From the IMG/VR virus record IMGVR_UViG_3300037714_000168, positions 1 through 40,448 of that record: a stretch of 40,448 nt of DNA, one strand, 5' to 3'. The position numbers and the translations under genes are program-made. Origin of the DNA: a virus. Lineage: Duplodnaviria > Caudoviricetes. The notes under the pieces were generated by a model. It ran no database searches. It was given only the letters and a program-made list of their open reading frames with translations, and was not told where the DNA came from. Of this stretch, positions 9,549-35,022 are shown piece after piece (the stretch's first letter is position 1; each line of letters begins with the position of its first letter).

Positions 9549-9660
9549 CTAGTCCTCCGGTTGAGAAACGCCTACAATTCAGGCCAAAGACGGGGCGGCG
9601 GAGTGGGATCAGCACCCCGCCGTCCCTGGCCACCCGCAATCCTGGCTAGAGGATACGCGA

Positions 9661-9972
9661 ATGGTTGTACGAACGATAGCCGCGGCGCTCGCCGTCTGGC
9701 TTGTTAACTTTCCGTTAGATTTGTGGGCTCAGCCCGCCCCGCCAGCCGATCCCCCTCCGAAATGCTACAGCGTTGCCGAGATCGGCGCGGCCTTGGCTGC
9801 CGAGACAGGTCAGGCCCTTGCCTATGAGGCTGTGACCAAGACAGGCACCCGGCTTGCCGTCTTTGTCGACAGCCGCGGTCTGTGGACCGTAGTTGTCACC
9901 AGCCGAAAGACCGGCTGTGCTGTGATCTTCGATTGGGGCGCGCACTGGTCCGTGCCCGGTGACGAAACGTGA
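9661..9972 (+). CDS. Exported hypothetical protein
   Basis: GAGG RBS; N-terminal hydrophobic signal; two Cys and G.WT..V...G.C...G..W pattern. Confidence 0.65.
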   Translation: MVVRTIAAALAVWLVNFPLDLWAQPAPPADPPPKCYSVAEIGAALAAETGQALAYEAVTKTGTRLAVFVDSRGLWTVVVTSRKTGCAVIFDWGAHWSVPGDET

Positions 9973-10157
9973 GACCGGACCTGGACGAACGCGACGAGCG
10001 GATCGCCCGGCGAGCCGAGGAATTGGTATTCCAGCGGGTCTATGCCGAGATCGGCCGGTCTGTCGTCAAGCGGGCGTGGTGGCTCTCCCTGGTAGCCCTG
10101 GCGGGGCTGCTGGGGGTGGCGGGCTACTTCGGGCTCGTCAAGGGGCCGCCGTCATGA
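9969..10157 (+). CDS. Small single-TM membrane protein (holin-like)
   Basis: GTGA overlap; charged N-terminus, C-terminal TM; lysis-region position. Confidence 0.55.
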   Translation: MRPDLDERDERIARRAEELVFQRVYAEIGRSVVKRAWWLSLVALAGLLGVAGYFGLVKGPPS

Positions 10158-10266
10158 GCGCCCGCCGTGGCGCGCCTCAGAGGCATGGGCAGGCGGGTCT
10201 TGTGGTGGCTCCTGCTGCTGCCGCTCAATCTGGTGACGGCCGGGCTGTGGCTCTGGCTCGAGCGCC

Positions 10267-10563
10267 GTGAAAAGCCTCATCTTCCTGCCCACTCAGTGCG
10301 CCCTGTCGTGGAACGGGAAAAGGCTGGACCTGAACGAAAATGAGACGGCGGTCCTGATCCTGCTGTCGGCCCGGCCCGGACACTGGTTCCTGTGGTCGGA
10401 GATCAAGAGCCATGCCGTGCAATACGGGTGGCCGGAACGGCGATTGGCGGGCTTGACCAGCGTTCTCTACAACGTGGCGTCGGCGCTCATCGGTACTACG
10501 GCATGGCTGGAGCGCAGCCCGGAGGACGCCTACAGGTTCATGGGAGAGATTGAGATCGGGTGA
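10267..10563 (+). CDS. Winged-helix protein resembling an OmpR/PhoB DNA-binding domain
   Basis: LSWNGKRLDLNENETAVLILLSARPG pattern matches the start of Trans_reg_C domains. Confidence 0.5.
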   Translation: MKSLIFLPTQCALSWNGKRLDLNENETAVLILLSARPGHWFLWSEIKSHAVQYGWPERRLAGLTSVLYNVASALIGTTAWLERSPEDAYRFMGEIEIG

Positions 10564-10565
10564 GG

Positions 10566-10588
10566 GGGCCGCCCTGCCTGAGCGGCCC
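10566..10588. terminator. GC hairpin between convergent genes
   Basis: GGGCCGC...GCGGCCC stem between stops at 10563 (+) and 10594 (-). Confidence 0.45.
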
Positions 10589-10593
10589 GGTGG

Positions 10594-10851
10594 TCACGCC
10601 CGGCGGGTGCCGCCCTTGTTGCCCTTCGGTCCCCGAGGACCGGCTGTGTTCGGTGACGGGCTCTCGGTATGCCCGGCGGGGCTGCTGTTGTTGTCAGGGT
10701 GGCCGCCAATGGACGCCCCGCCCTTGTTCATCGGACGCGGCGCCGTACTGCCCAGGAAGTTGTAGCCGGGCGTCACTGCCAAAGGGCCGCCGTTCGGATC
10801 AGACTGAGGCCGGCTGGCTGCGGCATCCCTATTTGGATCCCCTTTGCCCAT
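10594..10851 (-). CDS. Disordered Gly/Pro/Asn-rich hypothetical protein (85 aa), moron gene 2
   Basis: TGATG coupling to upstream gene at 10851. Confidence 0.55.
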   Translation of the reverse strand: MGKGDPNRDAAASRPQSDPNGGPLAVTPGYNFLGSTAPRPMNKGGASIGGHPDNNSSPAGHTESPSPNTAGPRGPKGNKGGTRRA

Positions 10852-11111
10852 CAGTCGATCACCCCGAGAGCCCAATCAAACTGGCTATCGGCCTCGGTCT
10901 TGATATCCGCCAGGGTATCCCAACGGCCGATGTTCTTGGCGTTCCACAGGCAGGCGACGATCAGGGATTCGTTGCCGTCGTACTTCTCGCTCTGGTTGGT
11001 CTTGACCCAGGTATACAGGGCCGCCGCCTGCGTCCTGACGTCGGCGACCGTCCACTGACTCGTCGAAATCACCAGGGCAAGGCATGCGGTGATGAGCTGC
11101 TCGTTATCCAT
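10851..11111 (-). CDS. Hypothetical protein (86 aa) made of two internal repeats, moron gene 1
   Basis: GGGGA RBS; NEQLITACL...W-TVADVRT.A....W versus NESLIVACL...WDTLADIKT.A....W. Confidence 0.7.
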   Translation of the reverse strand: MDNEQLITACLALVISTSQWTVADVRTQAAALYTWVKTNQSEKYDGNESLIVACLWNAKNIGRWDTLADIKTEADSQFDWALGVID

Positions 11112-11145
11112 TGTCTGATCCCCATGGACAGGTTGCGGTGGGGAG

Positions 11146-11174
11146 AACATAGCAGAAACACGGGCGAGCGTCTA
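11146..11174 (-). promoter_or_regulatory. Sigma70-type promoter for antisense moron
   Basis: Minus strand TAGACG-17 nt-TATGTT with TG extended -10. Confidence 0.5.
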
Positions 11175-11196
11175 TTATCGCAGGCAGGAGGCCGGG

Positions 11197-11421
11197 ATGA
11201 GTTTCACGCTGTCCGCCGGAGAGCTGATGATGCTGATCGCCCTGGTAGGCGGGGCGGTCGCGGCCGGCTGGTACAAGATGGAGCGGGGGGACGCGGCTGT
11301 CCGGGCTGAGGTCTCACGCCTGCGCCACCGGGTCTTCAACCTTATGCAGCATGTAAGCGCCCTGCATGCCCGGATGGGCATGTCCGAGCCGGATTGGAAG
11401 GACGGGGACGAGGAAGACTAG
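11197..11421 (+). CDS. Small membrane protein (holin/antiholin-like)
   Basis: GGAGG RBS; N-terminal TM then amphipathic helix and acidic tail. Confidence 0.6.
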   Translation: MSFTLSAGELMMLIALVGGAVAAGWYKMERGDAAVRAEVSRLRHRVFNLMQHVSALHARMGMSEPDWKDGDEED

Positions 11422-11430
11422 AACCGCGAA

Positions 11431-11456
11431 GGGCCGCCACCCGAAGATGACGGCCC
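11431..11456 (-). terminator. C(UUCG)G hairpin on minus strand; possible terminator or sRNA 3' end
   Basis: GGGCCGUCAUC-UUCG-GGUGGCGGCCC, 11 bp with two G-U pairs that work only on the minus strand. Confidence 0.55.
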
Positions 11457-11653
11457 TCAATTCGCGAAGAACTTCCTCTGAACCGGCATGGGCCGCCGGA
11501 GAAGGGCAGGCGTGCTTGCAGCGAGGGTCTCCGCCCTTTAGGGCGTGCCGGGCGCAACTTGCAACAAGGCCCTTAGCCCCCAAGGACGTCGCGTCCGGAC
11601 AAGCCCCACGAATTTACCCCAGCCGCCCCGGCGGCGCAACTAGGAGACTTTCT

Positions 11654-11866
11654 ATGAAGGGTTATCGCACGATCATCTTCAACGTGATCATGGCCGGCAT
11701 CATGGTCCTGTCGCAGTTCGGGCTTTTCGGCGACACGGTAGCCCCGGATGCCGCTGCGGTGAACCAGGGCCTTGATACGCTGGAGGTCATCCTGACGGCC
11801 GTCTGGGGTGCCGGCAATCTCGGCCTGCGGGCTGTGACCACCACGCCGGTCGGCAAGAGCGCCTGA
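11654..11866 (+). CDS. Holin-like protein
   Basis: AGGAG RBS; MKGYRTIIFN...NLGLRAVTTTPVG pattern, two hydrophobic segments. Confidence 0.65.
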   Translation: MKGYRTIIFNVIMAGIMVLSQFGLFGDTVAPDAAAVNQGLDTLEVILTAVWGAGNLGLRAVTTTPVGKSA

Positions 11867-11927
11867 TGCGGGGCATGTTCATGGCGGCGCTCCTGGTGGG
11901 CGCCGCCGGCCTCTCGCCGGAGTTGCC

Positions 11928-12041
11928 ATGACCGGCCTCGGGATCATCCTCGCGGCCGAGCACCTGTTCTTCTGGGCCGTTCTGGCAATCATGGCCGTGG
12001 CCCTGATCGGGGCGGTGGTGCAGTGGATGGTGGGGGAGTAG
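11928..12041 (+). CDS. 37-aa hydrophobic membrane peptide
   Basis: GGAG RBS, MTGLGIILAAEHLFFWAVLAIMAVALIGAVVQWMVGE. Confidence 0.45.
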   Translation: MTGLGIILAAEHLFFWAVLAIMAVALIGAVVQWMVGE

Positions 12042-12170
12042 CTGCGGGCCGGGCGCTACTCCGGCTCCCTATTCCCGGTCCGACCGCAGCCGGCCATCTT
12101 GCACGGTAGGGCGGCACACCCACCCCGGGGAGAATGCGCACTGCGTGTCTGCTTTCCACGCCGCCGCAGC
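12041..12170 (-). ncRNA. tRNA-like structured RNA with non-canonical D/T loops and expanded central region
   Basis: 7-bp acceptor GCUGCGG/CCGCAGC, 2-nt linker, D-arm GCGU/ACGC, T-arm GCCGG/CCGGC directly stacked on acceptor; no canonical anticodon arm or encoded CCA. Confidence 0.65.
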
Positions 12171-12177
12171 CCCACGA

Positions 12178-12384
12178 TTATGGAGCGTAACCGCCACAAT
12201 CACAAGGCCCAACCGGCAGCGCTGGTGCGTTATTGGTCGCGCAGTCTGACCAATGCTCGCTTCTGGCCCGCGCGTTTAACCCTGCGCAAAAGTAGGACGA
12301 ATGCACATCGACAGGCACACCCAAAACGCGATGCGCAAACCACATGGCCAAACGGAGGCGAAATCTTTGCGCGCCCGTCAACAT
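12178..12384 (-). CDS. Small Cys/His metal-binding phage protein
   Basis: GGAG RBS, ATG 12384; HWSDCATNNAPALPVGPCDCG motif. Confidence 0.6.
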   Translation of the reverse strand: MLTGAQRFRLRLAMWFAHRVLGVPVDVHSSYFCAGLNARARSEHWSDCATNNAPALPVGPCDCGGYAP

Positions 12385-12529
12385 TGTTAGAACTCCAAAA
12401 CAGAGACAACCGCAGCCCTCAAACCCTAGCAGCCACCGCGAGGATTTGCAACGATGAAGCCCGACGATATCCGCCAGCGCATGCGCGCCAAATGGCCTGT
12501 CGAGCTGGCGACCGGCGATCCGGTGTAGC

Positions 12530-12748
12530 CTACGCCAGCCGCCATACCCTGATTCCCGGCACCGGCGCGCGCTCGACACGTTGGGTGAACTTCAGCCCAT
12601 GTTCCGCCTTAAGCCGGTTTAGCGACCGGCCGATCCGGCACTGCACAAGGTACGTGGGCTCGCATTCGTACAGGATATCGTCGCCCACCAGCATATCCCA
12701 CCAGGGGTATTTACGCAGGCAGCCGACCTTCGCAGGAACCGGCCTCAA
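12530..12748 (-). CDS. Small phage protein, probable DNA-binding
   Basis: GGAGG RBS, TTG overlapping upstream stop; KYPW..M.VGD...F..R....GIRVWR pattern. Confidence 0.6.
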   Translation of the reverse strand: MRPVPAKVGCLRKYPWWDMLVGDDILYECEPTYLVQCRIGRSLNRLKAEHGLKFTQRVERAPVPGIRVWRLA

Positions 12749-13200
12749 CGCACCCGCCTCCACTCGCTGCCGTAGGCCGAGAGCGGAGTGATGGTGCCGA
12801 GCTGCCGGTCCAGGCAGATGGGGCTCTCCTGGCCTTCCAGGGTGGCACAGAGCGCCATGTGGGGCTCGCCGTCCAGGCCGTAGCCCAGGTAGTAGCCCAA
12901 CGCCTCACGGGGCCATCTGCGGGCTTCCAAGGCCCGTGCCGCCCAGCGCGCCCAATCCTCGCAATCGAACTTGCCATCCGTCATCGGCCACGCCGGCTCC
13001 GGGATCGTGGCGGCCCGGCGCATCTCGGCATGCACGCCGACCAGATCGGCGAGGGCTGGCGGCTCGGCCAGGGCCGGGGCGGCGAGGAGGAGGGTGAGGG
13101 CGGGCAGTGCAAGAAATTTTCCATAATGCCTATTACGGCGAATAGCCCCGGATAACTTGGTTCGTTCCTTGGCCGCAACGTTGAAGCCGACTCCAAACAT
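12745..13200 (-). CDS. Exported transglutaminase-like cysteine peptidase (BTLCP/LapG, Peptidase_C93-like)
   Basis: DCEDWA (Cys), GEPHMAL (His), CLD (Asp) triad pattern; signal-like LALPALTLLLAAPALA; start codon uncertain. Confidence 0.65.
   Translation of the reverse strand: MFGVGFNVAAKERTKLSGAIRRNRHYGKFLALPALTLLLAAPALAEPPALADLVGVHAEMRRAATIPEPAWPMTDGKFDCEDWARWAARALEARRWPREALGYYLGYGLDGEPHMALCATLEGQESPICLDRQLGTITPLSAYGSEWRRVR
13116..13143 (-). other. dif-like Xer site A (good XerD arm, degenerate XerC arm)
   Basis: Minus strand ATTCGCCGTAA-TAGGCA-TTATGGAAAAT; right arm 9/11 identical to E. coli dif XerD arm TTATGTTAAAT. Confidence 0.55.
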
Positions 13201-13316
13201 CCGATCCGGGACCAAACTGTGGTAGAGAACAAACCGTGATGTGAATCACGGGGAAACCGGGGAGAAAGTTACTAACAAATTGGAGTCGCAACGAACGTAA
13301 TTTGTATAAGAATCTG

Positions 13317-13344
13317 ATTTCGCATAATGTATAATACAGTAACC
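13317..13344 (+). other. dif-like Xer site B, candidate attP (good XerC arm and core, degenerate XerD arm)
   Basis: ATTTCGCATAA-TGTATA-ATACAGTAACC; 13 consecutive nt CGCATAATGTATA identical to E. coli dif; AT-rich intergenic island. Confidence 0.75.
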
Positions 13345-13367
13345 AAAGTATTCAACGCAACATCTAG

Positions 13368-13715
13368 TTACCGCGCAACGCCGTTACGTTTGCTATTATA
13401 GACCTCTGGCCTTTGCCGCGGCAAGAGTTGCTCCCGTATTCGCGCCCTGGGCTCTTTCAGCTCCCACTTGAGCTGACGGAACCGGGTAACAGGCGGGGTC
13501 GCTACGGCAAGTGCTGCCCGTTCGTACGCCGCCGCCATTACTCGCAGGGCATCTGCGACCGCGCGGTAAGTCGTGCCGTCTCCCTCGATTGGAAGATCGA
13601 CCCTGAGCGGCTTCAGGTCGGCCAGCCGCCGCTCCCATTCCGTCAGTTCGCCAGGCACATGCACTTCCTTCGGTCGGCGCGCCATCACATCCTCTGGGGT
13701 CATCCAGGTTTCCAT
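13368..13715 (-). CDS. Hypothetical protein at the integrase position next to the dif-like site
   Basis: AAAGGAG RBS; 115 aa; stop 23 nt from site B; no tyrosine or serine recombinase motifs. Confidence 0.7.
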   Translation of the reverse strand: METWMTPEDVMARRPKEVHVPGELTEWERRLADLKPLRVDLPIEGDGTTYRAVADALRVMAAAYERAALAVATPPVTRFRQLKWELKEPRARIREQLLPRQRPEVYNSKRNGVAR

Positions 13716-13751
13716 GCGTACTCCTTTCCTGGTCTGTGGGGTAGGGGAGGG

Positions 13752-14135
13752 TCATGCCTCGAAATCCTTGATGCGTCTGTCCATCATGGCCCGGAATGCA
13801 GCCGGCGTGACCTTCAGCCCGTGCTTGCTGTAGCAGTCACAGTCGGGAGCGAAGCACAGTTGATCGAGCGACGTGTCCGTTGCCGGCAGGCCGGTGCAGA
13901 TGACGGGGATTCCGGTGTCGATCATCTCGGGTGTGGCATCGCGGGTGCCCTTGAGGACGGCCTGGATCAGCTTGCCGGCATCCTCAGAAAACATCTGCCA
14001 TGTCTGGTCGACATACGCCTGCTCCGATGCACAGCCACATCTGCGCCAGCGCGGGCGGCTCAGGTGTCCGCCAGAAACCCACATCCCGGCGAGCATCCTC
14101 GACACCTGTTCGACAAGCTCGTCGGCGGCCTTCAT
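13752..14135 (-). CDS. Hypothetical protein, shares termini with neighbour (DELVEQV...RIKDFE)
   Basis: ATGA coupling; terminal similarity to 14132-14374. Confidence 0.65.
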   Translation of the reverse strand: MKAADELVEQVSRMLAGMWVSGGHLSRPRWRRCGCASEQAYVDQTWQMFSEDAGKLIQAVLKGTRDATPEMIDTGIPVICTGLPATDTSLDQLCFAPDCDCYSKHGLKVTPAAFRAMMDRRIKDFEA

Positions 14136-14374
14136 GTCTCGAAATCCTTGATGCGCTCGCCGATCATCGCTGAAATTTCCATGCCGCCGTCCTGCCATCC
14201 TGCCGTCCAATCACCGCGATGCCCGAGCGGTTCGGCAGATGGCGGGTTGTCGGCAATCACGTTGATCTCCGGCAGCACGCCCTTGAGGGTGGCCCGGATG
14301 GCGGCGCGGGCTTGGCCGCGCGAAATGACAGCGGCATCAGCCACCTGTTCGACAAGCTCATCCCGGTCAGTCAT
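14132..14374 (-). CDS. Hypothetical protein (MTDRDELVEQV...RIKDFET)
   Basis: GAGG RBS; coupled to neighbours. Confidence 0.65.
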   Translation of the reverse strand: MTDRDELVEQVADAAVISRGQARAAIRATLKGVLPEINVIADNPPSAEPLGHRGDWTAGWQDGGMEISAMIGERIKDFET

Positions 14375-14564
14375 CGGCTTTGTCCTCTGTGGGCTGGCGG
14401 CCGGTGCCGTGGCAGGTGGGGCAGCAGTCTTGATCCGGGTGGCTGCTCTGGCGTGGGCCGCAACACCCAACCCCACCGCACTCAAATTCGGCTTGCTGGC
14501 AACATTCCTGATGCGGCACTTCAATCTCTACGAGACCGCTGCCGCCGCACGTCGGACACGTCAT
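14367..14564 (-). CDS. Cys-rich zinc-finger protein (DnaJ-like CxxCxGxG x2)
   Basis: CPTCGGSG and CPTCHGTG motifs. Confidence 0.7.
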   Translation of the reverse strand: MTCPTCGGSGLVEIEVPHQECCQQAEFECGGVGCCGPRQSSHPDQDCCPTCHGTGRQPTEDKADD

Positions 14565-14866
14565 GTCGGCTCCTTGGCGAGGGCTCTGATTGCATTGGCA
14601 TGCAGGCGGTGCAGCATGGCCGCTCGGCCGGCCCCGTTGGTTTTATCCCCCATCGCTGCCCGCTGAAACAGGGCCGCCTGTGTATCGTGCCACTGCGCCG
14701 CTAGTTCCAGCGCCGCCGTCTTCGCATCGGCCAGCGCGAGGGCGATGCGGGAATTGGTTTCTTCTAGTTTGTCAGACGTGAGCCAGCCCAAAAGCGGCTT
14801 GGTAATTTCAACGGCCTTCTCCCGCTCGGCGGCTGTGGGAGTAGGTGTGGTTTTATTTCCTATCAT
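14561..14866 (-). CDS. Hypothetical protein
   Basis: Coupled ORF; ALELAA...ANAIRAL pattern typical of small early phage proteins. Confidence 0.6.
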   Translation of the reverse strand: MIGNKTTPTPTAAEREKAVEITKPLLGWLTSDKLEETNSRIALALADAKTAALELAAQWHDTQAALFQRAAMGDKTNGAGRAAMLHRLHANAIRALAKEPT

Positions 14867-15014
14867 TTAACATTTCCTCATAGTCGCGAGAGCACTTACA
14901 GATTTCGCCTTTAAAAGGGCATTGAATATACTTTTTAAAAGATGGTGCTCCACCAGCATATGCACAGAAAAACTCCTGTGCTTTCGCCAGATAGGCGGCT
15001 GTGGGCGTGGTCAT
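14853..15014 (-). CDS. AT-rich hypothetical protein (53 aa)
   Basis: GAGG RBS, ATG 15014; markedly AT-richer than flanks. Confidence 0.5.
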   Translation of the reverse strand: MTTPTAAYLAKAQEFFCAYAGGAPSFKKYIQCPFKGEICKCSRDYEEMLNDRK

Positions 15015-15094
15015 TCCTCGCTCCACAAATAAAAGAATAGAACAATCAAAATCGATCCCGAAAACCAAAGACCGATCCAAGGTAATACACTCAT
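15011..15094 (-). CDS. 27-aa TM peptide
   Basis: GAGGGTGAG RBS; MSVLPWIGLWFSGSILIVLFFYLWSEE; ATGA overlap. Confidence 0.45.
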   Translation of the reverse strand: MSVLPWIGLWFSGSILIVLFFYLWSEE

Positions 15095-15095
15095 C

Positions 15096-15389
15096 TCACC
15101 CTCCCTGCCCCGGCGCGCCGTCGAGGGCGCGGATCGCAGCATATCCAGCTTGGACAGCAGCCACCTTGCGCTTGAACGCGGCCCAATGCTCGAAGTCTTC
15201 TTTGTCGTCCAGCGCCTCAACGTTGTCGGCCGCGAGTAGCTCAACCAGCGCATCCGCTACGGCCTGTAGCAGGAGGAGATGCTGAGCGATGCTGAAATGG
15301 TCCATCTCTTCTGGCTGAAGCGGATATCCGTTCTCGACCGCGTTCACAAAGCGCCGCGCCAGCGCAACGGTTGGGTGCTCGGGGGTCAT
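15096..15389 (-). CDS. Hypothetical protein
   Basis: 97-aa ORF with GGAG RBS in operon. Confidence 0.6.
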   Translation of the reverse strand: MTPEHPTVALARRFVNAVENGYPLQPEEMDHFSIAQHLLLLQAVADALVELLAADNVEALDDKEDFEHWAAFKRKVAAVQAGYAAIRALDGAPGQGG

Positions 15390-15392
15390 GGC

Positions 15393-15545
15393 CTATTCTC
15401 CCAACGGACACATAAGACGGTCGAACAGTTTAAATCTCAGCAGCGCCCAATCCTTCTCCGGGCCATCCTCCATAAGACGAATACGTTGTTCTTCTGCGTT
15501 GCACGTTTTCTGGTAATCAAAAGCGCGATCTTTCGGACCAATCAT
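15393..15545 (-). CDS. Hypothetical protein (50 aa, MIGPKDRAFDYQ...)
   Basis: Read from sequence; fills gap, ATGA overlap with upstream gene, GGAG RBS. Confidence 0.5.
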   Translation of the reverse strand: MIGPKDRAFDYQKTCNAEEQRIRLMEDGPEKDWALLRFKLFDRLMCPLGE

Positions 15546-15967
15546 AGCTCCCCACCCTTCGCCTCGGCGGGGAGGGCGGCTCGGGCATGGGAAACTATGT
15601 CATCCAGCGTAGCCGCCATGGCCGCATCTCCGTTGCGCGTTGCCTTTTCCGCATGATTGGCAATCTCCGCTAGCGCCTCCCGCACCGCCAGCAATTCCGC
15701 CGCGAGCTGTGGGGCGAGGTTGTAGCCGGCAGCAAGGAGCTTAGCGTTAGCCTCGCATTCAGCATTGGTCATCCCAACGCGCCTGGAAGCCCACGCAACA
15801 ATGCCGCGCGACGGGTTGGTAATCCGTAGCTCATCGTTCGATGCGATAACCCCACAGCCGCCTTCTATGCCTTTCCCCCACGCCTTTTCTTCAGCTACTA
15901 CCGGCCCCGGCGTCGCCTTCTCGCTCAGCCCCACCAGCCGCCGCAGTTCTTCATCTGTGATGGTCAT
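15542..15967 (-). CDS. Ead/Ea22-like early protein
   Basis: EELRRL...EKATPGP...EANAKLLAA motif. Confidence 0.65.
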   Translation of the reverse strand: MTITDEELRRLVGLSEKATPGPVVAEEKAWGKGIEGGCGVIASNDELRITNPSRGIVAWASRRVGMTNAECEANAKLLAAGYNLAPQLAAELLAVREALAEIANHAEKATRNGDAAMAATLDDIVSHARAALPAEAKGGEL

Positions 15968-16314
15968 GTGGTTTTCCTCAACACTGTCCTGCCGTCCAGT
16001 GTCCGCTTGAATTTCGACCCGCGTCCGCAGGGCAGGGGCGTGCGGGACGGGGGCTTGCCGAGATGCGCCGCGCGCTGCCGACCGGCCTTGGCAATCTGCG
16101 GAATATCGCCGCCGTAGGTCTTCGCATCGTCACATGTCGCGCAAATGACCTGACAGTTCTCCAGCGTCGGCTGGCCGCCTAGGGCATCAGGTAGTTTGTG
16201 GTCGAACTTGAACTTGCCGACCGTCAGCCGCGTGGCGCACCCAGGCATCTCGCACTGCCCCTTGCACCGCTCATAGGCGGCAACGCGGACACGGGCGGGG
16301 AATTCGCGTCTCAC
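15964..16314 (-). CDS. HNH endonuclease
   Basis: C..C...FDHKLPDALGGQPTLENCQVICATCD HNH motif; GTG start overlapping upstream stop. Confidence 0.85.
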   Translation of the reverse strand: MRREFPARVRVAAYERCKGQCEMPGCATRLTVGKFKFDHKLPDALGGQPTLENCQVICATCDDAKTYGGDIPQIAKAGRQRAAHLGKPPSRTPLPCGRGSKFKRTLDGRTVLRKTT

Positions 16315-16766
16315 AACGGCGCAGTCCACTGGCCAGTGTCGATCATGTATTGCTCGTACATGCGAGTGAACTTCACCACAGCACCGGCATTGCCAGAAAT
16401 ATCGGCCCGCGATTTAACGCCGCATGTGCGCCGGATGAAGGCAGCAGCCGCCTCTTCCTCCCATATTCCGCATGCCCACATCTGAAACCGCTTGTCGTTC
16501 GCCAGTATCCCGGTCTGGGTTGGCAGGGGCAGGGTGTGGAAGGGCGTGCGTTCCTTTGCCGGTTCCTCGGGCTGCGCGGGCTCAGGAGCGGCTTCCTGCC
16601 CCTCGACCACTTCCGCATAGCCGACCATGAAGATCGTGCCTAGCGGCGCGGCGGCGAGGTCCGGAGATACATCCGAGGGATGGACCGTGAAGGCGATTAC
16701 CACGCCGTCCTGCGTCTGCCGGTAGGCGTGCTTCTTGGCCTCGAATGCGCCTTTGATCTGGGGCAT
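16311..16766 (-). CDS. Conserved phage hypothetical protein (recombination module)
   Basis: GIL..D.RFQ.W......AA..IR..CGV.SR pattern; between SSB-like and HNH genes. Confidence 0.65.
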   Translation of the reverse strand: MPQIKGAFEAKKHAYRQTQDGVVIAFTVHPSDVSPDLAAAPLGTIFMVGYAEVVEGQEAAPEPAQPEEPAKERTPFHTLPLPTQTGILANDKRFQMWACGIWEEEAAAAFIRRTCGVKSRADISGNAGAVVKFTRMYEQYMIDTGQWTAPL

Positions 16767-16775
16767 GGCTACACC

Positions 16776-18118: not shown

Positions 18119-18119
18119 G

Positions 18120-18386: not shown

Positions 18387-18440
18387 CTCACCCTCTCCAT
18401 GTGCAGCGGCGGGGCGAGGCGAGAGGTGGGGGTCATGGCA

Positions 18441-22533: not shown

Positions 22534-22980
22534 TTAGGACGCGCGGCCGGTCTGAGGGTCCTGGGCGGCGGCCTCGGCGCCTTGCTGCCTCTTCAGGCGA
22601 GCGGCTCTGATCCGCTCGTACCAGGCCGCGCGCTCTTCTGGGGGCAGTGGGTCAAGCTCCTGTATGAACGCTCTCTGTTCGACTGGTGACATGGTTGGCT
22701 CCTTCTCCACACCAGTAGCGTCGTTCACAGAGGTTGACGATTTCTTAACGCCAACATCCTCAGATTCTATGGGTTTTGGCTCATTTCCTGTGGATAAATA
22801 CTCCCAAGATCGCCGTAATTCCTTAACGAGGGCTGGGATACGCTTTGGTTCCGGCAGCGCCACGTCGTTTTCCCACTGAGAGATCGCGGCCCGCGACACG
22901 CCGAGCTTCTCCCCGAGCTTCTCTTGCGTGTCATGCCCCGTTGCGATGCGGGCTTCTCGGATTCGGCGGCCTAGCGTCAT
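22534..22980 (-). CDS. cI: CI-like XRE HTH repressor, no S24 peptidase domain
   Basis: LGRRIREAR...TQEKLGEKLGVSRAAISQWEND HTH; divergent from cro. Confidence 0.85.
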   Translation of the reverse strand: MTLGRRIREARIATGHDTQEKLGEKLGVSRAAISQWENDVALPEPKRIPALVKELRRSWEYLSTGNEPKPIESEDVGVKKSSTSVNDATGVEKEPTMSPVEQRAFIQELDPLPPEERAAWYERIRAARLKRQQGAEAAAQDPQTGRAS

Positions 22981-22986
22981 GCCGCC

Positions 22987-23056
22987 ATTATGAAAGGCGG
23001 GCTTACCGGCTGGAACGAAAGACTGGCTTGACATAAGCGAAAGTCACACTTAACCT
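22987..23056. promoter_or_regulatory. OR region: three operators with divergent PR and PRM promoters
   Basis: GAAAG-N5-CTT at 22992-23006, 23017-23031, 23039-23053; PR TTGACA(23028)-17-TAACCT(23051); PRM -10 CATAAT (minus, 22987-22992) 6 nt before cI ATG. Confidence 0.8.
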
Positions 23057-25783: not shown

Positions 25784-26013
25784 CGCGCATCGCCACCCCA
25801 TCAGATACCGCCCACCCGCTGATCCGGCAGCTGTATGCCTTGATCGTACAGCTCGAAACCAATCCCGGCGCGCTGTCCGGCAAGGCCGGGCTCTGCCCTA
25901 ACGCCGTCTGGCGCATCCTGAAATGCAAGCGCAGCACCCGCATCGACATGATGGACAGGGTACTGGCCCCGCTCGGCTACGAGCTGGTGATCCGGCCGAA
26001 GAGGGGCGAGTAG
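25780..26013 (+). CDS. XRE-type HTH protein
   Basis: LSGKAGL....V.R.......RID....VL..LGYEL. Confidence 0.65.
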   Translation: MTRIATPSDTAHPLIRQLYALIVQLETNPGALSGKAGLCPNAVWRILKCKRSTRIDMMDRVLAPLGYELVIRPKRGE

Positions 26014-26870
26014 TGGCGCGCATCCGCACCATAAAGCCTGAATTTCCACAGTCGGAGAGGATGGGCAAGGTCTCTCGCGAAGCGCGTCTCCTTTTCGTGA
26101 ACATGTGGACACTTGCAGACGACGAAGGGAGGCTTCGCGCGGCGTCGCGAATGCTCGCGAGCCTTCTCTACCCATACGACGACGATGCACCGGACCTGAT
26201 CGAAGGGTGGCTTGGCGAGCTGGAGCGGGTAAGGAGCATTCATCGCTACGTCGTGGATGACACCACCTATGCACAGGTCACTAACTGGTTGGAACATCAG
26301 AAGATTGACCGGGCATCAAAGTCGCGCTTGCCGGCTCCCGGAGAACCCTCGCGACAATTCGCGAGCCCTCGCGAGGTTTCACCCCCCTACCTAGGACCTA
26401 GGACCTTGGACCAAGACCTAGGAAAGAGTGCTGATGCTTGCGCACGCGACCCTCGCTTGAAAGCCGTTGGCGAGCGTGTGCTCGCTCTCTGCGGCGATAG
26501 CCCGAATCTGCTGCACTACGCCAGGGTCGAAACTTGGCTGGGCAGCGGAGCCGACCCCGAGCTGGATATTTTCCCAACAATCACCGCCGTGGTTGCCAAG
26601 CTCGGCAAGGCGCCAAGCAGCTTGAACTATTTCGACGGCCCGATTGCCGATGCCGTAGCGCGGCGGACCAAACCCATGCCGACCGGTGATCCTTTCGAGC
26701 CGCCAGCCTTCCTCGACCGTCGTCCCAAATCCCGTGCCCAGGAGCAAGCCGATGCAGCCGCAGTCGTCTTCGGAGCCGTCAATCAGCGTGTCAATGGTCC
26801 AGGCAATCAACCAAGTCCTGCAAGAAATCCGCGTTTGCTACCAGCCGCCATCGGGAGCAAAGACGCCTGA
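26013..26870 (+). CDS. Replication initiator (replisome organiser-like)
   Basis: MARIRTIKPEF...ARLLF..MW..ADDEGR...NWLEHQKI; internal iteron-like repeats. Confidence 0.8.
   Translation: MARIRTIKPEFPQSERMGKVSREARLLFVNMWTLADDEGRLRAASRMLASLLYPYDDDAPDLIEGWLGELERVRSIHRYVVDDTTYAQVTNWLEHQKIDRASKSRLPAPGEPSRQFASPREVSPPYLGPRTLDQDLGKSADACARDPRLKAVGERVLALCGDSPNLLHYARVETWLGSGADPELDIFPTITAVVAKLGKAPSSLNYFDGPIADAVARRTKPMPTGDPFEPPAFLDRRPKSRAQEQADAAAVVFGAVNQRVNGPGNQPSPARNPRLLPAAIGSKDA
26347..26423. repeat. Candidate replication origin iterons inside initiator gene
   Basis: TCGCGA x3 at 10-bp spacing (26349, 26359, 26369) then ACCTAGG-type 7-mers x5 from 26389. Confidence 0.55.
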
Positions 26871-28694: not shown

Positions 28695-29204
28695 ATGGCT
28701 GTTGAGCCGCTGACGCCCAACGTTCCTGCTCCAGCCATCCAGCGAGGCCCAGGACGTCCGTCATCTTACAACACGGACACCTGCGCTGAGATATGCCGCC
28801 GATTGGCAGATGGGGAAAGCCTGCGGGCGATCTGCCGGGACCAGATCATGCCTTCGCGGCCGACCGTTTTGCGGTGGGTTGAGGATTTCCCCGAATTCCG
28901 TACCCAATACGCCCGCGCGCGCGAAGCTCAGGCCGATCACTACGCCGAGGAAATCCTTGATATTTCCGACGACGGCGAGAACGACTGGATGTGCCGTGAG
29001 GGCAAGGATAAATCCGAATCCTGGCAGCTCAACGGCGAGCACGTCCAGCGGTCAAAGCTCCGGGTCGACTCCCGCAAATGGCTCATGTCCAAGCTGGCGC
29101 CGAAGAAGTACGGCGACAAGGTGACACAGGAGCTTGTCGGGCCTGGCGGCGGCCCTGTGCAGATCGAGCGCCGCATTGTCGACCCTACAAATCCCGACTC
29201 CTAG
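28695..29204 (+). CDS. terS: Terminase small subunit (Sf6 gp1-like)
   Basis: GRPSSY....EIC.RLA.GESLR.IC....MP...TV.RW...F..QYARARE...R.KL.VD.RKW..SKL.PKKYGDK. Confidence 0.92.
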   Translation: MAVEPLTPNVPAPAIQRGPGRPSSYNTDTCAEICRRLADGESLRAICRDQIMPSRPTVLRWVEDFPEFRTQYARAREAQADHYAEEILDISDDGENDWMCREGKDKSESWQLNGEHVQRSKLRVDSRKWLMSKLAPKKYGDKVTQELVGPGGGPVQIERRIVDPTNPDS

Positions 29205-30423
29205 GGTATTCCTGCCGCTCCTGGAGCCCAGCCGCTACAAGGGCGCATACGGAGGCCGGGGGTCTGGCAAGTCGCACTTCTTCGCCGAGCTGGGGGTTGA
29301 GCGTTGTCTGATGCGCAACGGATCGCGCGGGGTCTGCATCCGTGAAGTCCAGAAGACGCTGAAGGAATCGGCCAAGCGGCTGATCGAGGACAAGATCGGC
29401 GCTCTTGGCGTAGGGGAGCAATTCAACATTCTGAATACGGAGATCGGCACGCCCGGCGGGGGTGTCATCCTGTTCCAGGGCATGCAGGACCACACCGCGG
29501 AGTCGATCAAGAGCCTGGAGGGCTTCGATTGGGCATGGGTGGAAGAAGCCCAGACGCTCAGCGCCCGCAGCCTCGAAATGCTGCGCCCGACGATCCGGGC
29601 GGACGGATCCGAACTGTGGTTCTCCTGGAATCCTCGCTCAGCCACCGATCCGGTCGACCAGCTTCTCAGGGGACCTAACCCCCCAGCCGACGCGGCAGTG
29701 GTTAGGGTGAACTACAGCGACAACCCGTTTTTCCCCAAGGAACTGGCGGCCGAGCGGGAACATGACCGGCTCAACAACCCCGGCCGCTACGGGCATATCT
29801 GGCTCGGGGAATACGAGCCGATGGCTATCGGGGCGATTTGGGACCGGGACAACTTCCGCCGCAACCGCCGGCAGGAAGCACCGGAGATGGAGCGGGTGCT
29901 CGTGGCGGTCGACCCTGCGGTATCGAGCGAGCCCGGATCGAATGAGCACGGGATCATCTGCGCAGGGCAGGGCGTCGACAAGCGCGGGTACGTCCTGGCG
30001 GACGCGACGATCAAGGGCAAGCCGCAGGAGTGGGCGCAGCGGGCTCTAGCGACACATGACCTGTACGAGGCGGACGGCATCGTTGTGGAAGTGAACCAGG
30101 GCGGCGACATGGTGAAGCACACCCTGCAAAGCATCCGGCCGAATGTGCGGATTATCGAGGTCCGGGCCAGTCGTGGAAAGCACGTCCGGGCCGAGCCGAT
30201 CTCAGCCCTGTACAGTGCAGACCGGGTTTCGCATGTCGGCACGTTCATCGAACTGGAGAACCAGATGTGTCAGATGACGGCAGCGGGTTATGAGGGCGAC
30301 GGTAGTCCTGACCGTACTGACGCACTGGTGTGGGCGTTGACCGAGCTTTTTCCGAGCATGATCCGCCGGGCTGCCAAGGTGACGGTAGAGCGGCCGGTGG
30401 TACAGGGTGGGTGGATGGGATGA
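29176..30423 (+). CDS. terL: Terminase large subunit
   Basis: Walker A GGRGSGKS, Walker B WVEEA, SWNP; nuclease VDPA...SPDRTDALVWA; TTG start inferred. Confidence 0.95.
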   Translation: MSTLQIPTPRVFLPLLEPSRYKGAYGGRGSGKSHFFAELGVERCLMRNGSRGVCIREVQKTLKESAKRLIEDKIGALGVGEQFNILNTEIGTPGGGVILFQGMQDHTAESIKSLEGFDWAWVEEAQTLSARSLEMLRPTIRADGSELWFSWNPRSATDPVDQLLRGPNPPADAAVVRVNYSDNPFFPKELAAEREHDRLNNPGRYGHIWLGEYEPMAIGAIWDRDNFRRNRRQEAPEMERVLVAVDPAVSSEPGSNEHGIICAGQGVDKRGYVLADATIKGKPQEWAQRALATHDLYEADGIVVEVNQGGDMVKHTLQSIRPNVRIIEVRASRGKHVRAEPISALYSADRVSHVGTFIELENQMCQMTAAGYEGDGSPDRTDALVWALTELFPSMIRRAAKVTVERPVVQGGWMG

Positions 30424-30581
30424 GTTGCGAACCAAAGCGCCTGCTTACACCGGTAGAGGTCACCAGAGAAGCGTTCCGCATTCTCGGCCGGCTTATGGCC
30501 CCCGGCATTGCGCGGGAGCAGGCTCAAGAGCGGGCGGCAGAAATAGCCCGCTGGTCTGACGACGGAGGGGCTGTGGGATGA
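30420..30581 (+). CDS. 53-aa protein resembling the coat N-terminal arm
   Basis: LLTPVEVTREAFRIL versus coat ILTPTAVTREALRIL; ATGA coupling. Confidence 0.65.
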   Translation: MSCEPKRLLTPVEVTREAFRILGRLMAPGIAREQAQERAAEIARWSDDGGAVG

Positions 30582-30766
30582 AAGACGCGCTGGGCTGGTG
30601 GGCGAATGACGTGGGGGCCGTCGTCTTCGGCCGTGAGGTTGATTGTCGTGTCAGCGTCAGGGAGCCGACCGCGAAAGAACAGGAGCGGTTTACGAGCATG
30701 GGGCTGCGCCTCGGCGAGATTGTTGAGATTAAGCCGGTGGATGACGATGGCGGGGTTGTGGGATGA
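30578..30766 (+). CDS. Hypothetical protein (62 aa)
   Basis: ATGA coupling, GGAGG RBS; ends DDGGVVG. Confidence 0.55.
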   Translation: MKDALGWWANDVGAVVFGREVDCRVSVREPTAKEQERFTSMGLRLGEIVEIKPVDDDGGVVG

Positions 30767-30852
30767 GCGAGCGCGGGGATTTGATGGTGTTGACAGCGTG
30801 CGCACTGGCAATCGCAACGCCGTGGATTCTATGGGCGTTGCTTAATGGCTAA
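30763..30852 (+). CDS. 29-aa TM peptide
   Basis: ATGA coupling; MSERGDLMVLTACALAIATPWILWALLNG. Confidence 0.4.
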   Translation: MSERGDLMVLTACALAIATPWILWALLNG

Positions 30853-32818
30853 AGGCGACTCCTACTCCTCCAAGTCCGACGACGAAATCCTGGAAGAGGC
30901 CAAGGAAGCCTTCACCCGTTGTCAGGACTGGCACTCTGAGAACTACCAGACTGCGCAGGACGATATCCGGTTCGCCCGTCTCGACGATCAATGGCCTGAG
31001 GCTATCAGGAAGCAGCGGGAAAAGGATGCCAAGCCCTGCCTGACGATCAACAAGCTGCCCAGCTTCATCCGCCAGGTGGTCAACGATGCCCGGCAGAACA
31101 AGCCGCAGATCAAGGTGCGGCCGGTCGACAGCGGGTCTGATCCCGAGACGGCGGAGATATTCAACGGCCTCATCCGCAATATCGAACAGTCCAGCAATGC
31201 CGACGTGGCTTACGACACGGCTGCGGACTTCGCGGTGTCAGGTGGGATCGGGTACATCCGGGTCACCATCGAATACGCGCACGACGACACGTTCGACCGG
31301 GAACTCAGGATCGAGCGGGTCGCCAATCCCTTTGCGGTGTTCGGTGATCCCGACAGCACGGCGGCTGACAGCTCGGATTGGAACGTCGCGTTCTTTGTCG
31401 ACAGCATGTCCAAGAAGGAATTCGAGGCGAAGTACAAGGACGCCGAGAAGGTCGACTGGGATTCCGAGGGCTATACCGGGCTGGGCGAGCCGTGGCTTGA
31501 GGGCGATAACGTCCTGGTCGCAGAGTACTGGTTCCGTGAGGAGGCCGACCGCGAGCTGGTGATGCTGTCGGACGGCCGGGTCATGGATCGCGAGACATTC
31601 GAGCAGGGTGCCGATCTGGCCGAGGCCGAGGGCGTCCAGATTGTCGATACGCGCACGACCAAGACGCACAAGGTCAAGATGTGCCTGCTGACCGGCGCCG
31701 AGGTTCTCGAGGAGCATGAGTGGGGCGGGAAGTACATCCCGATCATCCCCGTCTATGGCGACGAGATCAACCTGGAGGGCAAGCGGTACTTCCGCAGCCT
31801 GATTCACAGCGCCAAAGACGCCCAGCAGATGTTCAACTATTGGCGCACGTCAGCAACCGAATTGGTTGCGCTGGCTCCCAGGGCGCCGTTCATCGGCAAA
31901 TCCGGCACGTTCGATACCGATCTGGCGAAGTGGGATACGGCGAACACGCAAAACCACAGCTTCATCCAGTACGACGGCGACGTTCCGCCCCAGCGCCAAG
32001 CCTTCGCGGGTGTCCCGGCCGGGCATCTCCAGGAGGCCCTCAACGCCTCGGACGACATGAAGGCGATCATGGGCATGTACGAGCCGGCGCTCGGACAGAA
32101 ATCAAACGCTGTCTCCGGTGTCGCGATTCGTAACCTCCAGCGCGAAGGCGATACATCAACATTTCATTTCCTGGACAACTTGGCTCGCGGTATCAGGCAG
32201 GTTGGCCGGGTGATCATCGACCTGATCCCCAAGGTCTACACGGGGGAACGGATTATCCGCGTGCTGGGCAATGACGGGTCGGTTGATCGTGTTCCGCTTG
32301 GCCAGCCGACGCCGGTCAAGGGGCCGGGGGGCCTGCCGCAGCAGGGGCCGGACGGCAACCCGATCATGAAGGTGTTTGACCTGACTGCCGGCAAGTACGA
32401 CCTGACGGTCGAGACCGGGCCGAGCTACACGACGCTCCGGCAGGAGGCCGCTCAGAGCATGGTCGAGATGGTCCAAGCGTTCCCGCCGCTGGCCCAGGTT
32501 GCCGGCGATCTGCTGTTCAAGAATCTGGACTGGCCGGGCGCCGATGAGATTGCCGAGCGGCTGAAGGCCATGAATCCCGCGGCCCAGGGTGAAAACCCGG
32601 AGATGGCGAAGATGAAGGCCGAGCTTCAGAAGCTCACGCAGGAAAACCAAATGTTGAAGCTTCAGGCTGCCGGCATGAAGGCGGACAAGTCCGTTGGCAT
32701 GATGGGCGCCGAGACAGACAAGTTTGCAGCCCAGACGGATCGGCTGGAGGTAATCGCGGATGCGATGAAGCCCCCACCGCAACCCCGTCCGATGCCTGCT
32801 GCTGCCGGCCGCCGTTAG
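30845..32818 (+). CDS. Portal protein (P22 gp1-like)
   Basis: DDIRF....QWP......R.....PCLTINKLP.FIRQVVND.RQN, KDAQ.MFNYW, GKYD..V.TGPSY.T.RQEAA. Confidence 0.95.
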   Translation: MAKGDSYSSKSDDEILEEAKEAFTRCQDWHSENYQTAQDDIRFARLDDQWPEAIRKQREKDAKPCLTINKLPSFIRQVVNDARQNKPQIKVRPVDSGSDPETAEIFNGLIRNIEQSSNADVAYDTAADFAVSGGIGYIRVTIEYAHDDTFDRELRIERVANPFAVFGDPDSTAADSSDWNVAFFVDSMSKKEFEAKYKDAEKVDWDSEGYTGLGEPWLEGDNVLVAEYWFREEADRELVMLSDGRVMDRETFEQGADLAEAEGVQIVDTRTTKTHKVKMCLLTGAEVLEEHEWGGKYIPIIPVYGDEINLEGKRYFRSLIHSAKDAQQMFNYWRTSATELVALAPRAPFIGKSGTFDTDLAKWDTANTQNHSFIQYDGDVPPQRQAFAGVPAGHLQEALNASDDMKAIMGMYEPALGQKSNAVSGVAIRNLQREGDTSTFHFLDNLARGIRQVGRVIIDLIPKVYTGERIIRVLGNDGSVDRVPLGQPTPVKGPGGLPQQGPDGNPIMKVFDLTAGKYDLTVETGPSYTTLRQEAAQSMVEMVQAFPPLAQVAGDLLFKNLDWPGADEIAERLKAMNPAAQGENPEMAKMKAELQKLTQENQMLKLQAAGMKADKSVGMMGAETDKFAAQTDRLEVIADAMKPPPQPRPMPAAAGRR

Positions 32819-32828
32819 GCGGCTTTTT
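32808..32828 (+). terminator. Intrinsic terminator after portal
   Basis: GCCGCC-GTTA-GGCGGC-TTTTT. Confidence 0.75.
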
Positions 32829-32863
32829 CATGACTGCCACTAACCCCTGAGGAGTGGACTCTT

Positions 32864-33739
32864 ATGCTGCCTGATGAAGATGACGACGTGACCACGCCTG
32901 ATACCGAAGCCGAACCGGAAGGCGAGGAGCAGGAAGTCACGGAAGCCGAACCCGAAGAGGGCGACGGCGAAGAGGGTGAGGAAGAGGAAGCCGAGCCCGA
33001 GGAGCTGGACGAAATCGAGCATGAGGGGAAGAAGCATGCCATCCCCAAGGCGCTCAAGCCGCTCTTCATGATGCAGTCGGACTACACGAAGAAGACCCAG
33101 GAGGTCGCCGACACGCGCCGGGAACTTGAGGCACGCCAGACGGCGTTCCAAGAGCATACCAAGGCGCAAGAGGCATTTATCGGGGACTTCGCGAAGATCG
33201 AGGCGCTCAACGGGCGCATCGCGGAATTCGAGAAGGTCGACTGGCAGACTTTGAGCCAACAGGATGCGCCGCGCGCGCAAGCACTGTGGTTCGAATTCAG
33301 CCGGTTGAAAGACCAGCGTGTGGCGTTGTCCGGTGGACTGCGCCAGAAGATCGACGAGCGCTCTCAGGCACAGCGTCGTGACCACGACAAACGTGTCGAG
33401 GAAAGCCAAGCCGTTCTAAGGAAGGAAATCCCCAACTTCGGCCCCGAGCTGGTGAGCAAGCTCAGGGACTTCGGCATGACGCAAGCCGGCCTCACTCAGA
33501 AGGAGGTCGACGCCGTGATCGATCCGCGTCACGTCAAGCTCCTGTACCTCGCCCATATCGGCCATGAGTTGGCAGAAAAGCAGCGTAAGGCGATGACCAA
33601 GCCCAAACCCACGGAAGCAAAGCCCGTGCCGACCGTCCAAGCCAAAGGGAAGACGGATTCTCGGCTCCGGGACGATCTTTCGATTGAGGAATGGACGAAG
33701 CGTCGTGATGCGCAGGAGCGGGCCGCGCGAGCCCGCTAA
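32864..33739 (+). CDS. Scaffolding protein
   Basis: Acidic N-terminus, MMQSDYTKKTQE, coiled coil, C-terminal LS.EEW..RR; between portal and coat. Confidence 0.88.
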   Translation: MLPDEDDDVTTPDTEAEPEGEEQEVTEAEPEEGDGEEGEEEEAEPEELDEIEHEGKKHAIPKALKPLFMMQSDYTKKTQEVADTRRELEARQTAFQEHTKAQEAFIGDFAKIEALNGRIAEFEKVDWQTLSQQDAPRAQALWFEFSRLKDQRVALSGGLRQKIDERSQAQRRDHDKRVEESQAVLRKEIPNFGPELVSKLRDFGMTQAGLTQKEVDAVIDPRHVKLLYLAHIGHELAEKQRKAMTKPKPTEAKPVPTVQAKGKTDSRLRDDLSIEEWTKRRDAQERAARAR

Positions 33740-33750
33740 ACTCCCCCGTA

Positions 33751-33770
33751 GCCCCGTCGTGAGACGCGGC
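33751..33770 (+). promoter_or_regulatory. GNRA-loop hairpin upstream of coat RBS
   Basis: GCC-C-CGTC-GTGA-GACG-C-GGC in scaffold-coat spacer. Confidence 0.4.
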
Positions 33771-33795
33771 ATGCCCTTAGAAGGATCTTTTCCTC

Positions 33796-35022
33796 ATGTC
33801 CAACACGATTCTGACTCCCACTGCGGTAACGCGCGAAGCGCTCCGCATCCTCCACCAGAAGCTCAACTTCATCGGCACGATCAACCGGCAGTATGACGAC
33901 TCTTTCGCCAAGTCCGGCGCGAAGATCGGCGACAGCCTGAAGATTCGTCTGCCGAACCAGTACACGGTCCGCACCGGCCGTACCATCGACGTGCAGGACA
34001 CTGTCGAGTCGAGCGTAACGCTCCAGGTCGCCACCCAGAAGGGTGTCGACATCGCGTTTACCTCGGCCGACATGACCCTGTCGTTGCAGGACTTCTCGGA
34101 TCGCATCCTGAAGCCGGCAATGTCGGTCCTGGCGGCGAACATTGAGAGCGATGCCATGTCCATGTACAAGGACGTGTACAACGAGGTGTCGGATTTGGGT
34201 GCCGACGCGACTGTCAACTTCGTGCTTCAGGTGGGCAAGAAGCTGACGGATGACTTGGCGCCGGTCAGTGACCGCACGCTGAACCTCAACACGACCGACA
34301 ACATGGACCTCGTTGACGCGCTGAAGGGCCTGTTCAACGACCCGGCCAAGCTCAGCAAGAACTTCCGTGAGGGCATGGTGGCTGCGAACTTCCTGGGCTT
34401 CCAGGACGTGATGCAGAACACCCTGTGGCCGATCCACACCACCGGCACTGACGACGGTACCGGCGATTACCTCACCGATACCGCTGCTGGTGAGGCCGAT
34501 GGTTCGGCGGGCTTGCTGAACGTCGATACTGGCGCCGGCTCGTGGAACAAGGGCGATATCTTCCACATCGCCGATTGCTTCCGCGTGCATCCGGAAACCA
34601 AGGTCTCGACCGGGCAGCTTCAGCGGTTTGTCGTGACCGCCACATCCACCCCCGGAGCCGGCGGCGGTAGCCTCGCCATCAGCCCGAACATCGTGACCTC
34701 GGGTGCCAAGCAGAACGTCACCGGCTTTGCCAACGACAAGGCCCTTCACAAGAACGAGTCGGACACGACCACTGATGTTGGCAACGCGGCCGATTACAAC
34801 ATCAGCATGGGCTATCACAAGGACGCCTTCGCGTTCGCGACGGCCGATCTGATCATGCCCAAGGGTGTGGACTTCGCCTCTCGTCAGGTCATGGACGGCA
34901 TTTCGATGCGCATCATCCGCGACTACGACATCAACAACGACAACCTGCCGTGCCGTATCGACGTGCTGTACGGCTACAAGACGACCCGGCCCGAGCTGGC
35001 CTGCCGTCTCGGCCTGAACTGA
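33796..35022 (+). CDS. Major capsid protein (P22 gp5 family)
   Basis: ILTP..VTREAL.IL...L.F...INRQYDDSF...GAKIG..L.IRLP...RIDVLYG...RPE.ACR. Confidence 0.95.
   Translation: MSNTILTPTAVTREALRILHQKLNFIGTINRQYDDSFAKSGAKIGDSLKIRLPNQYTVRTGRTIDVQDTVESSVTLQVATQKGVDIAFTSADMTLSLQDFSDRILKPAMSVLAANIESDAMSMYKDVYNEVSDLGADATVNFVLQVGKKLTDDLAPVSDRTLNLNTTDNMDLVDALKGLFNDPAKLSKNFREGMVAANFLGFQDVMQNTLWPIHTTGTDDGTGDYLTDTAAGEADGSAGLLNVDTGAGSWNKGDIFHIADCFRVHPETKVSTGQLQRFVVTATSTPGAGGGSLAISPNIVTSGAKQNVTGFANDKALHKNESDTTTDVGNAADYNISMGYHKDAFAFATADLIMPKGVDFASRQVMDGISMRIIRDYDINNDNLPCRIDVLYGYKTTRPELACRLGLN

Follow-up and report, generated by a model that had tools for sequence, protein, structure and literature searches.

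How can a temperate-type tailed phage enter the chromosome of its host if it carries no integrase? In P22-like phages, the leftward operon ends with int and attP. In the viral DNA analysed here (Caudoviricetes; IMG/VR record IMGVR_UViG_3300037714_000168, 40,448 nucleotides, the full length of which we call the window), a site resembling the bacterial dif site adjoins the end of that operon. This position had been pointed out in a sequence-only reading, which proposed that the phage lysogenises at the chromosomal dif using host XerC and XerD, as IMEXs do.

A closed P22-like genome

The genome had been described as closed, and this is borne out by a 127-nt terminal repeat, which places the record in the class with direct terminal repeats, with the caveat that CheckV estimates its completeness at 67% despite these repeats. 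A P22-type portal and coat and a terminase pair are present without long tail genes (Pfam, PHROGs; Table 1), as in P22-like podophages, and further products comprise ejection and tail-fibre-like proteins and a NusG-like antiterminator (Pfam, PHROGs). The cI-like repressor is clear, but the reported “full cI/cro switch” is only partly borne out, as the divergent gene gave only a weak HTH match (E 0.035). The window represents the closed genome of a P22-like, temperate-type phage.

Table 1. Positions of features in the window.
Feature	Position	Strand	Basis or remark
Transglutaminase-like (BTLCP) ORF, 5' part overlapping site B	12745..13215	-	PF06035 E 0.024, below cut-off
Site B, inverted dif-like: XerD arm 13116-13126 host-type, XerC arm imperfect, spacer unlike dif	13116..13143	-	
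Conserved block between XerC arms, within 173-bp segment	13155..13225	.	pairwise alignment with G047
Site A, candidate attP: XerC arm 13317-13327, spacer 13328-13333, degenerate XerD arm 13334-13344	13317..13344	+	
ORF115, 115 aa, last gene of leftward operon, end 23 bp from site A	13368..13715	-	helical family without name
41-nt element, ORF115 ribosome-binding site and start	13712..13752	-	97.6% identical in G047
cI-like HTH repressor, first gene of leftward operon	22534..23034	-	PF01381 E 8e-10, phrog_4
Replication initiation protein	25923..26870	+	phrog_2149 E 5e-27
Sf6-type small terminase, large terminase, P22-like portal, scaffold, P22-like coat	28695..35022	+	PF20901, PF04466, PF16510, PF11651; PHROGs

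The reported absence of recombinase, ParA and ParB genes was upheld by Pfam searches of 135 six-frame segments of at least 120 aa and by PHROGs searches of 94 chosen ORFs, in which none was detected. Six-frame HMM searches for PF00589, PF00239, PF02195 and PF13614, the check that had been recommended, likewise gave no match in the window, while the controls for these family searches were positive in 10 to 14 of 14 genomes. Many ORFs of the window have no family, and the unassigned long ones are located in the virion region. A contig from a public sequencing run, possibly of the same source, covers 8000-20000 with no difference to the window. PF00589 occurs in 5 of 20 early-gene relatives and, therefore, lysogeny modules vary across the wider group.

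Several other features of the gene content were recorded. No endolysin was recognised in the window with Pfam or PHROGs; the end of the late operon (9400-12100) contains holin-like and small membrane ORFs, and a phage lysozyme lies at a like place in the related genome G047 (see below). A small ORF at 10267-10563, winged-helix regulator-like by eye and without Pfam or PHROG match, is weakly similar to ORFs at the equivalent position in the relatives G021 and G013. The BTLCP ORF, for which a counterpart was sought in G047 and not found, has a signal-peptide-like start and is possibly an accessory gene expressed in the lysogen. A Mom-like DNA modification gene and a methyltransferase (PHROGs) are found at 23969-24415 and 18752-19384, and the head module includes a 423-aa gene (35548-36819; absent from G047) with a glycosyltransferase-like part, recognised by eye, and a weak methyltransferase part. 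A 39-nt direct repeat (82%; 13752-13790 and 14132-14170) at the 3' ends of two neighbouring leftward genes suggests paralogous gene ends. Searches for tRNA and Rfam families gave no match in the window.

Two inverted dif-like sites

Site A lies exactly where the sequence-only reading had placed it. The window contains its 13-nt core a single time (0.13 chance matches expected at ≤2 mismatches) and, with a matrix built from 27 host dif sites, XerC arm and spacer of site A score 32.9 against a shuffle maximum of 19.9, a score reached by none of 300 Markov shuffles. The XerD arm is indeed degenerate, agreeing with host XerD arms at 5 of 11 positions, next to an intact XerC arm and spacer, which is the arrangement of TLC-type IMEXs. 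In a 6-bp register this arm has neither T at position 1 (T1) nor G at position 5 (G5), whereas both are present in a 7-bp register; the 6-nt spacer is that of dif, although a 7-nt centre can also be read. Site A had been compared with E. coli dif, with which it was said to share one stretch exactly, but this was the wrong yardstick; both sites fit alphaproteobacterial dif.

The dif-like sites had been called paired, and a second one, site B, is found at 13116-13143. Its two arms score 19.6 on the minus strand (shuffle maximum 18.2, 0/300 shuffles reaching it), compared to 16.9 for the direct reading. The best matches to the host dif matrix in both the window and G047 are sites A and B (0/300 shuffles). 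The pair is likely inverted, judging from these scores, with 173 bp between the sites. Two inverted dif-like sites are also characteristic of CTX-type IMEXs; the VGJ type has a single 29-bp site, the centre of which departs from dif on the XerD side. A CTX-like hairpin between A and B is not formed, as the minimum-energy fold of neither strand pairs A with B, and a short peptide encoded between the sites is unsupported, the frames shifting between the window and G047.

The first 19 nt of site A also occur in 22 small low-GC viral contigs (L021-L042), probably filamentous phages, several of which have a second dif-like site with another spacer. This only shows that such sites are common.

The likely host

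The site A core was found, nearly always once, in 48 of 83 genomes of the order of the Dongiaceae record G125, which we take to be the Dongiales; the reversed control was found in 1 of 83. Among the 30 core loci listed, a canonical XerD arm follows in 27, with the sequence TTATGGAAAAT in 16. The XerD arm of site B is the commonest host arm, being identical in 16 of the 27 host dif sites. In one candidate host, G134, dif equals site A over 17/17 bases of XerC arm and spacer and site B over 11/11 bases of the XerD arm. The candidate attP thus matches a host dif on XerC arm and spacer, as in IMEXs, with the host taken from portal relatives and dif match. The candidate hosts G134, G125 and G141 have two Xer-type genes each. 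The majority of the 80 genome loci with portal relatives is alphaproteobacterial, and the named portal relatives (56-60% identity) come from Phenylobacterium, Rhizobium and Aminobacter. Because the same spacer also occurs in other Alphaproteobacteria, we can only infer the host, but dif and portal together point to a likely Dongiales-type alphaproteobacterium.

A module kept in the closest complete relative

G047, the closest complete relative, is a closed record of 42,118 bp (CheckV completeness 53% despite terminal repeats) with a portal 70% identical to that of the window. No integrase was detected; PF00589, PF00239, ParA and ParB were sought in the same way as in the window and none was found. 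The two genomes are collinear across the structural module and in both the A/B sites lie ~23 kb downstream of the portal. In G047, site A (28210) keeps 15 of 17 bases of XerC arm and spacer next to a different degenerate XerD arm, which has G5, and site B (28026, minus strand) keeps 10 of 11 XerD-arm positions with another spacer; its inverted reading is clear, although it is without clean inner arm geometry. Retention of XerC arm and spacer with drift of the XerD arm would be the pattern expected under selection for recombining with dif, not with itself. Some 70 bp between A and B are also conserved, and this block may be accessory-protein or promoter DNA. The distance from B to A is 203 and 213 bp in the two phages, i.e., one helical turn apart, which is a weak hint from two cases. 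Apart from the 41-nt element at the start of ORF115, the early regions share little other DNA.

The conservation of A, B, the block and the position of ORF115 is seen in one relative, G047. The closest relative by portal (G021, 89% identity) is uninformative, as its record ends before the region, and 78 further viral relatives found by portal or early genes (43 + 35; most of them fragments) gave chance-level matches except for G003, which has a XafT-type module (see below). Searches for the B-to-A pattern yielded nine matches in viral records, real in G047 only, and 15 in metagenomes, none of which resembles the phage.

In G047, a counterpart of ORF115 (23% identity) occupies the equivalent position, with an HNH gene between it and the site; five other homologs are at 67-83%. 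Its profile took in 8 proteins and then 85 or more clusters at E≤0.001, and none of 69 family members has a Pfam family. The structure model is a confident helical hairpin (pLDDT 84), for which fold searches returned only generic helical matches (best Z 5.5), none at E≤0.001; a serine integrase formed the top rows of one search at a non-significant E of 4.6. No ORF115 locus other than G047 was found in the viral scan, phage records, the feature-based atlas search or 452 loci, and its genomic neighbourhood is known from two phages. We regard ORF115 as a tentative candidate for a Xer helper or directionality factor, with site B as a putative aid to XerD loading and not a second crossover.

The plus strand of the 41-nt element contains two overlapping KOPS-type octamers, called with what we take to be the KOPS consensus. 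A KOPS strand bias as a sign of residence by dif was considered and rejected: the ratio is 25:9 over the window and G047, yet permuted octamers show a comparable bias (p 0.30) and the ratio is 19:7 in 12 control loci that have no dif-like site.

XafT-type modules in other phages and genomes

In V. cholerae, XafT-driven integration requires T1 or G5 in the XerD arm (PMC9226527). Of the relatives of our phage, G013, a 41-kb record reached via an early gene, has a P22-like portal, no PF00589, and a similar site that matches in position and orientation and is followed by an HTH gene; DUF3653 was found in 14 of 103 homologs of the HTH protein. A XafT-like gene was found in 22 viral loci, and each of them has, 24-48 bp upstream of the gene, a site in which the XerC arm is intact and the XerD arm degenerate; in 21 of these 22 only G5 is kept in the XerD arm. 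A portal related to that of the window (P22-like) is present in six, for which a tailed nature is thus indicated. PF00589 was detected in 2 of the 22 (2 of 13 near-complete). The records with XafT-like HTH-DUF3653 genes (L056-L077 and L003; e.g., L013:12259-12693) are mostly 39-70 kb long, and the near-complete G031 and G035 each carry a XafT-dif module plus a PF00589 gene.

Among 400 Gammaproteobacteria, XafT-like matches were obtained in seven genomes. In four of these the gene lies inside a 0.8-1.6 kb element with a half-degenerate site on one side and a full dif on the other; two of the remaining three, which are partly short stretches, have a full dif alone and one has none. Such elements show the expected integrated geometry of the module, for small elements and not for tailed phages. 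Minimal dif elements with a XafT-like gene occur at G840:C15:8719-9676, G1025:C7 near 239,200-240,400, L440 and L443, and these 0.8-1.6 kb elements are possibly satellites or activator cassettes.

The window and G047 themselves gave best E-values of 0.098 and 0.34 with a 101-sequence XafT profile, compared to 26 locus matches at E<1e-43, and ORF115 matches the XafT-like profile with a probability of 0.3%. PF12375 was not found in the window, although the same search also missed the G013 protein. The XafT-like query reaches orf135/154 of Vibrio phage VFJ, and the profile of this query has no match in the window.

Comparison with known Xer-dependent elements

Close in anatomy is the TLC-phi satellite of Vibrio cholerae (PMC6744903, PMC9226527), which likewise lacks an integrase and has a dsDNA attP in which a degenerate XerD arm is combined with a XerC arm and spacer of dif type. 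The analogy with TLC-phi had already been drawn and stands for the site; it fails on the protein side, as there is no XafT-like gene. Our phage differs from TLC-phi (PMC6744903, PMC9226527) in being tailed, self-packaging and 40 kb in size, with a likely alphaproteobacterial host, a second inverted site, no HTH-DUF3653 activator and, in the 6-bp register, neither T1 nor G5. The gonococcal genetic island is, in the same sources, also a large dsDNA element that lacks XafT and the XerD arm of which is degenerate, and for it the authors allow an activator from another family; however, it is an island, the integration of which at dif has been observed.

A second, distinct Xer activator, XafV, is encoded beside the attP of VGJ-phi (PMC4246890; bioRxiv 10.64898/2026.06.12.731946). 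The 29-bp site of this phage is resembled by site A if read with a 7-nt centre, but VGJ-phi is filamentous and its spacer departs from dif on the XerD side (PMC4246890). XafV is, like XafT, of the HTH type (bioRxiv 10.64898/2026.06.12.731946), whereas ORF115 is predicted to be a helical hairpin. CTX-phi shares with our phage two inverted dif-like sites a short way apart, yet there the folded single-stranded genome pairs its sites (PMC4246890), while here no pairing is predicted and the genome is of the dsDNA type. The dif-type double jelly-roll vibriophages (PMC12715192) and the enterobacterial gokushoviruses (PMC7062461), for the latter of which dependence on XerC/XerD has been demonstrated, are also described as integrase-less with full or half dif mimics but, unlike our phage, are tail-less with small genomes. 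By anatomy, then, the phage would be a TLC- or gonococcal island-type IMEX that departs from the TLC type in XafT and from the CTX type in pairing. The IMEXs described in the papers considered are filamentous phages, satellites, double jelly-roll phages, microviruses and one island; in the literature searched, mostly openly readable papers without their supplements, we found no report of a tailed phage integrating via host XerCD.

Search for an integrated copy

No prophage of the lineage of the window was found, at dif or elsewhere, in the genomes searched. A P22-like portal is present in 8 of the 83 genomes of the order, never on a contig with a dif match (in six the match is on another contig and two have none), and six portal regions fetched from genomes of the order contain no dif-like site. 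The ORF115 profile found 0 of these 83 genomes and only four weak matches in 401 genomes, in which the B-to-A pattern was found 0 times. The source run, the only run containing the phage, yielded no phage-host joint, and none of the six loose ends listed (of 56) is at the site. Similar DNA was absent from 72,556 plasmid records. The proposal of lysogeny at dif via host XerCD is thus partly supported, namely by the missing integrase, the site kept in one informative relative and the match to the dif of a plausible host, whereas the checks of portal relatives and read joints, which had been recommended, produced neither a prophage at dif or elsewhere nor a joint.

How might the phage integrate?

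Insertion by host XerC/XerD is likely because the phage has no detectable integrase and because a half-perfect copy of dif, an inverted site and a small gene are kept in the closest complete relative. We put the probability that site A is the attP of a tailed IMEX using host XerC/XerD at roughly two in three; that this phage integrates is likely from its sequence, with no integrated copy at hand. Host XerC/XerD would recombine site A with the chromosomal dif; one end of the inserted phage would then carry a hybrid with the poor phage XerD arm, and a functional dif would be restored at the opposite end. As in TLC-phi and the gonococcal island, the poor XerD arm might limit FtsK-driven excision. 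As XafT is absent, another helper would be needed: ORF115 could be the activating helper in its place, and site B an extra high-affinity XerD-binding site looping towards site A. These two are favoured because both are conserved beside site A and XafV has been shown to be a second activator family. The wider scenario, in which tailed lambdoid phages repeatedly swapped int-attP for a host-Xer module and this lineage represents a third route, with ORF115 as a new activator family (unrelated to XafT and XafV) and a second inverted XerD-loading site one loop from a poorly XerD-bound attP, seems rather unlikely in this full form.

The sequence-only reading also offered an alternative, that the site resolves dimers of an extrachromosomal prophage. 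The phage would then persist as a circle, the multimers of which host XerCD would resolve at A or B, with the DNA in between acting as cer/psi-like accessory sequence. That no integrated copy was found is in line with this, as is the partly conserved 173-bp segment on the XerC side of both sites, since cer relies on flanking accessory sequences (PMC9226527). Both phages moreover keep the arms of site B but not its spacer, as would be possible for a site that recombines only with its own copy. However, self-recombination does not need the identity of the site A spacer to host dif seen in both phages, site B of G047 has no clean inner arm geometry, and neither ParA/ParB nor a plasmid replication protein (in the Pfam matches) nor similar plasmid DNA was found; we consider multimer resolution improbable. 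More improbable still is a reading of the sites as remnants of a XafT-type module in decay, in which xafT was lost and a base gained in A, so that the phage has either lost autonomous integration or depends on an activator in trans. XafT is missing from a position occupied in 22 other records and site A is without T1 and G5, but decay would not spare A, B, the block and ORF115 with its near-identical start region in two phages that share little early DNA.

Finally, the integrase may only appear to be missing, due to an unrecognised phage recombinase or an incomplete assembly, with the likeness to dif being secondary. The CheckV estimates of 67% and 53%, the unrecognised endolysin and the many ORFs without family fit this idea. 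However, terminal repeats close both records, the structural modules of the two are collinear, the public-run contig over 8000-20000, possibly of the same source, shows no difference, and the long unassigned ORFs lie in the virion region, which makes this very improbable. Site A as the attP of an IMEX remains our preferred reading.

Implications

If this reading is true, a tailed phage without an integrase need not be lytic or plasmid-like, and this would matter for predicting the lifestyle of uncultured phages. The range of XerCD hijacking, so far small elements without tails, would come to include 40-kb tailed phages and the Alphaproteobacteria. The module, with its 660 bp, is of a size that is testable on a plasmid. 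The reading would also provide a candidate answer to the question, raised in the XafT papers, of how integration is achieved by large elements, such as the gonococcal island, in which the XerD arm is degenerate and XafT is missing.
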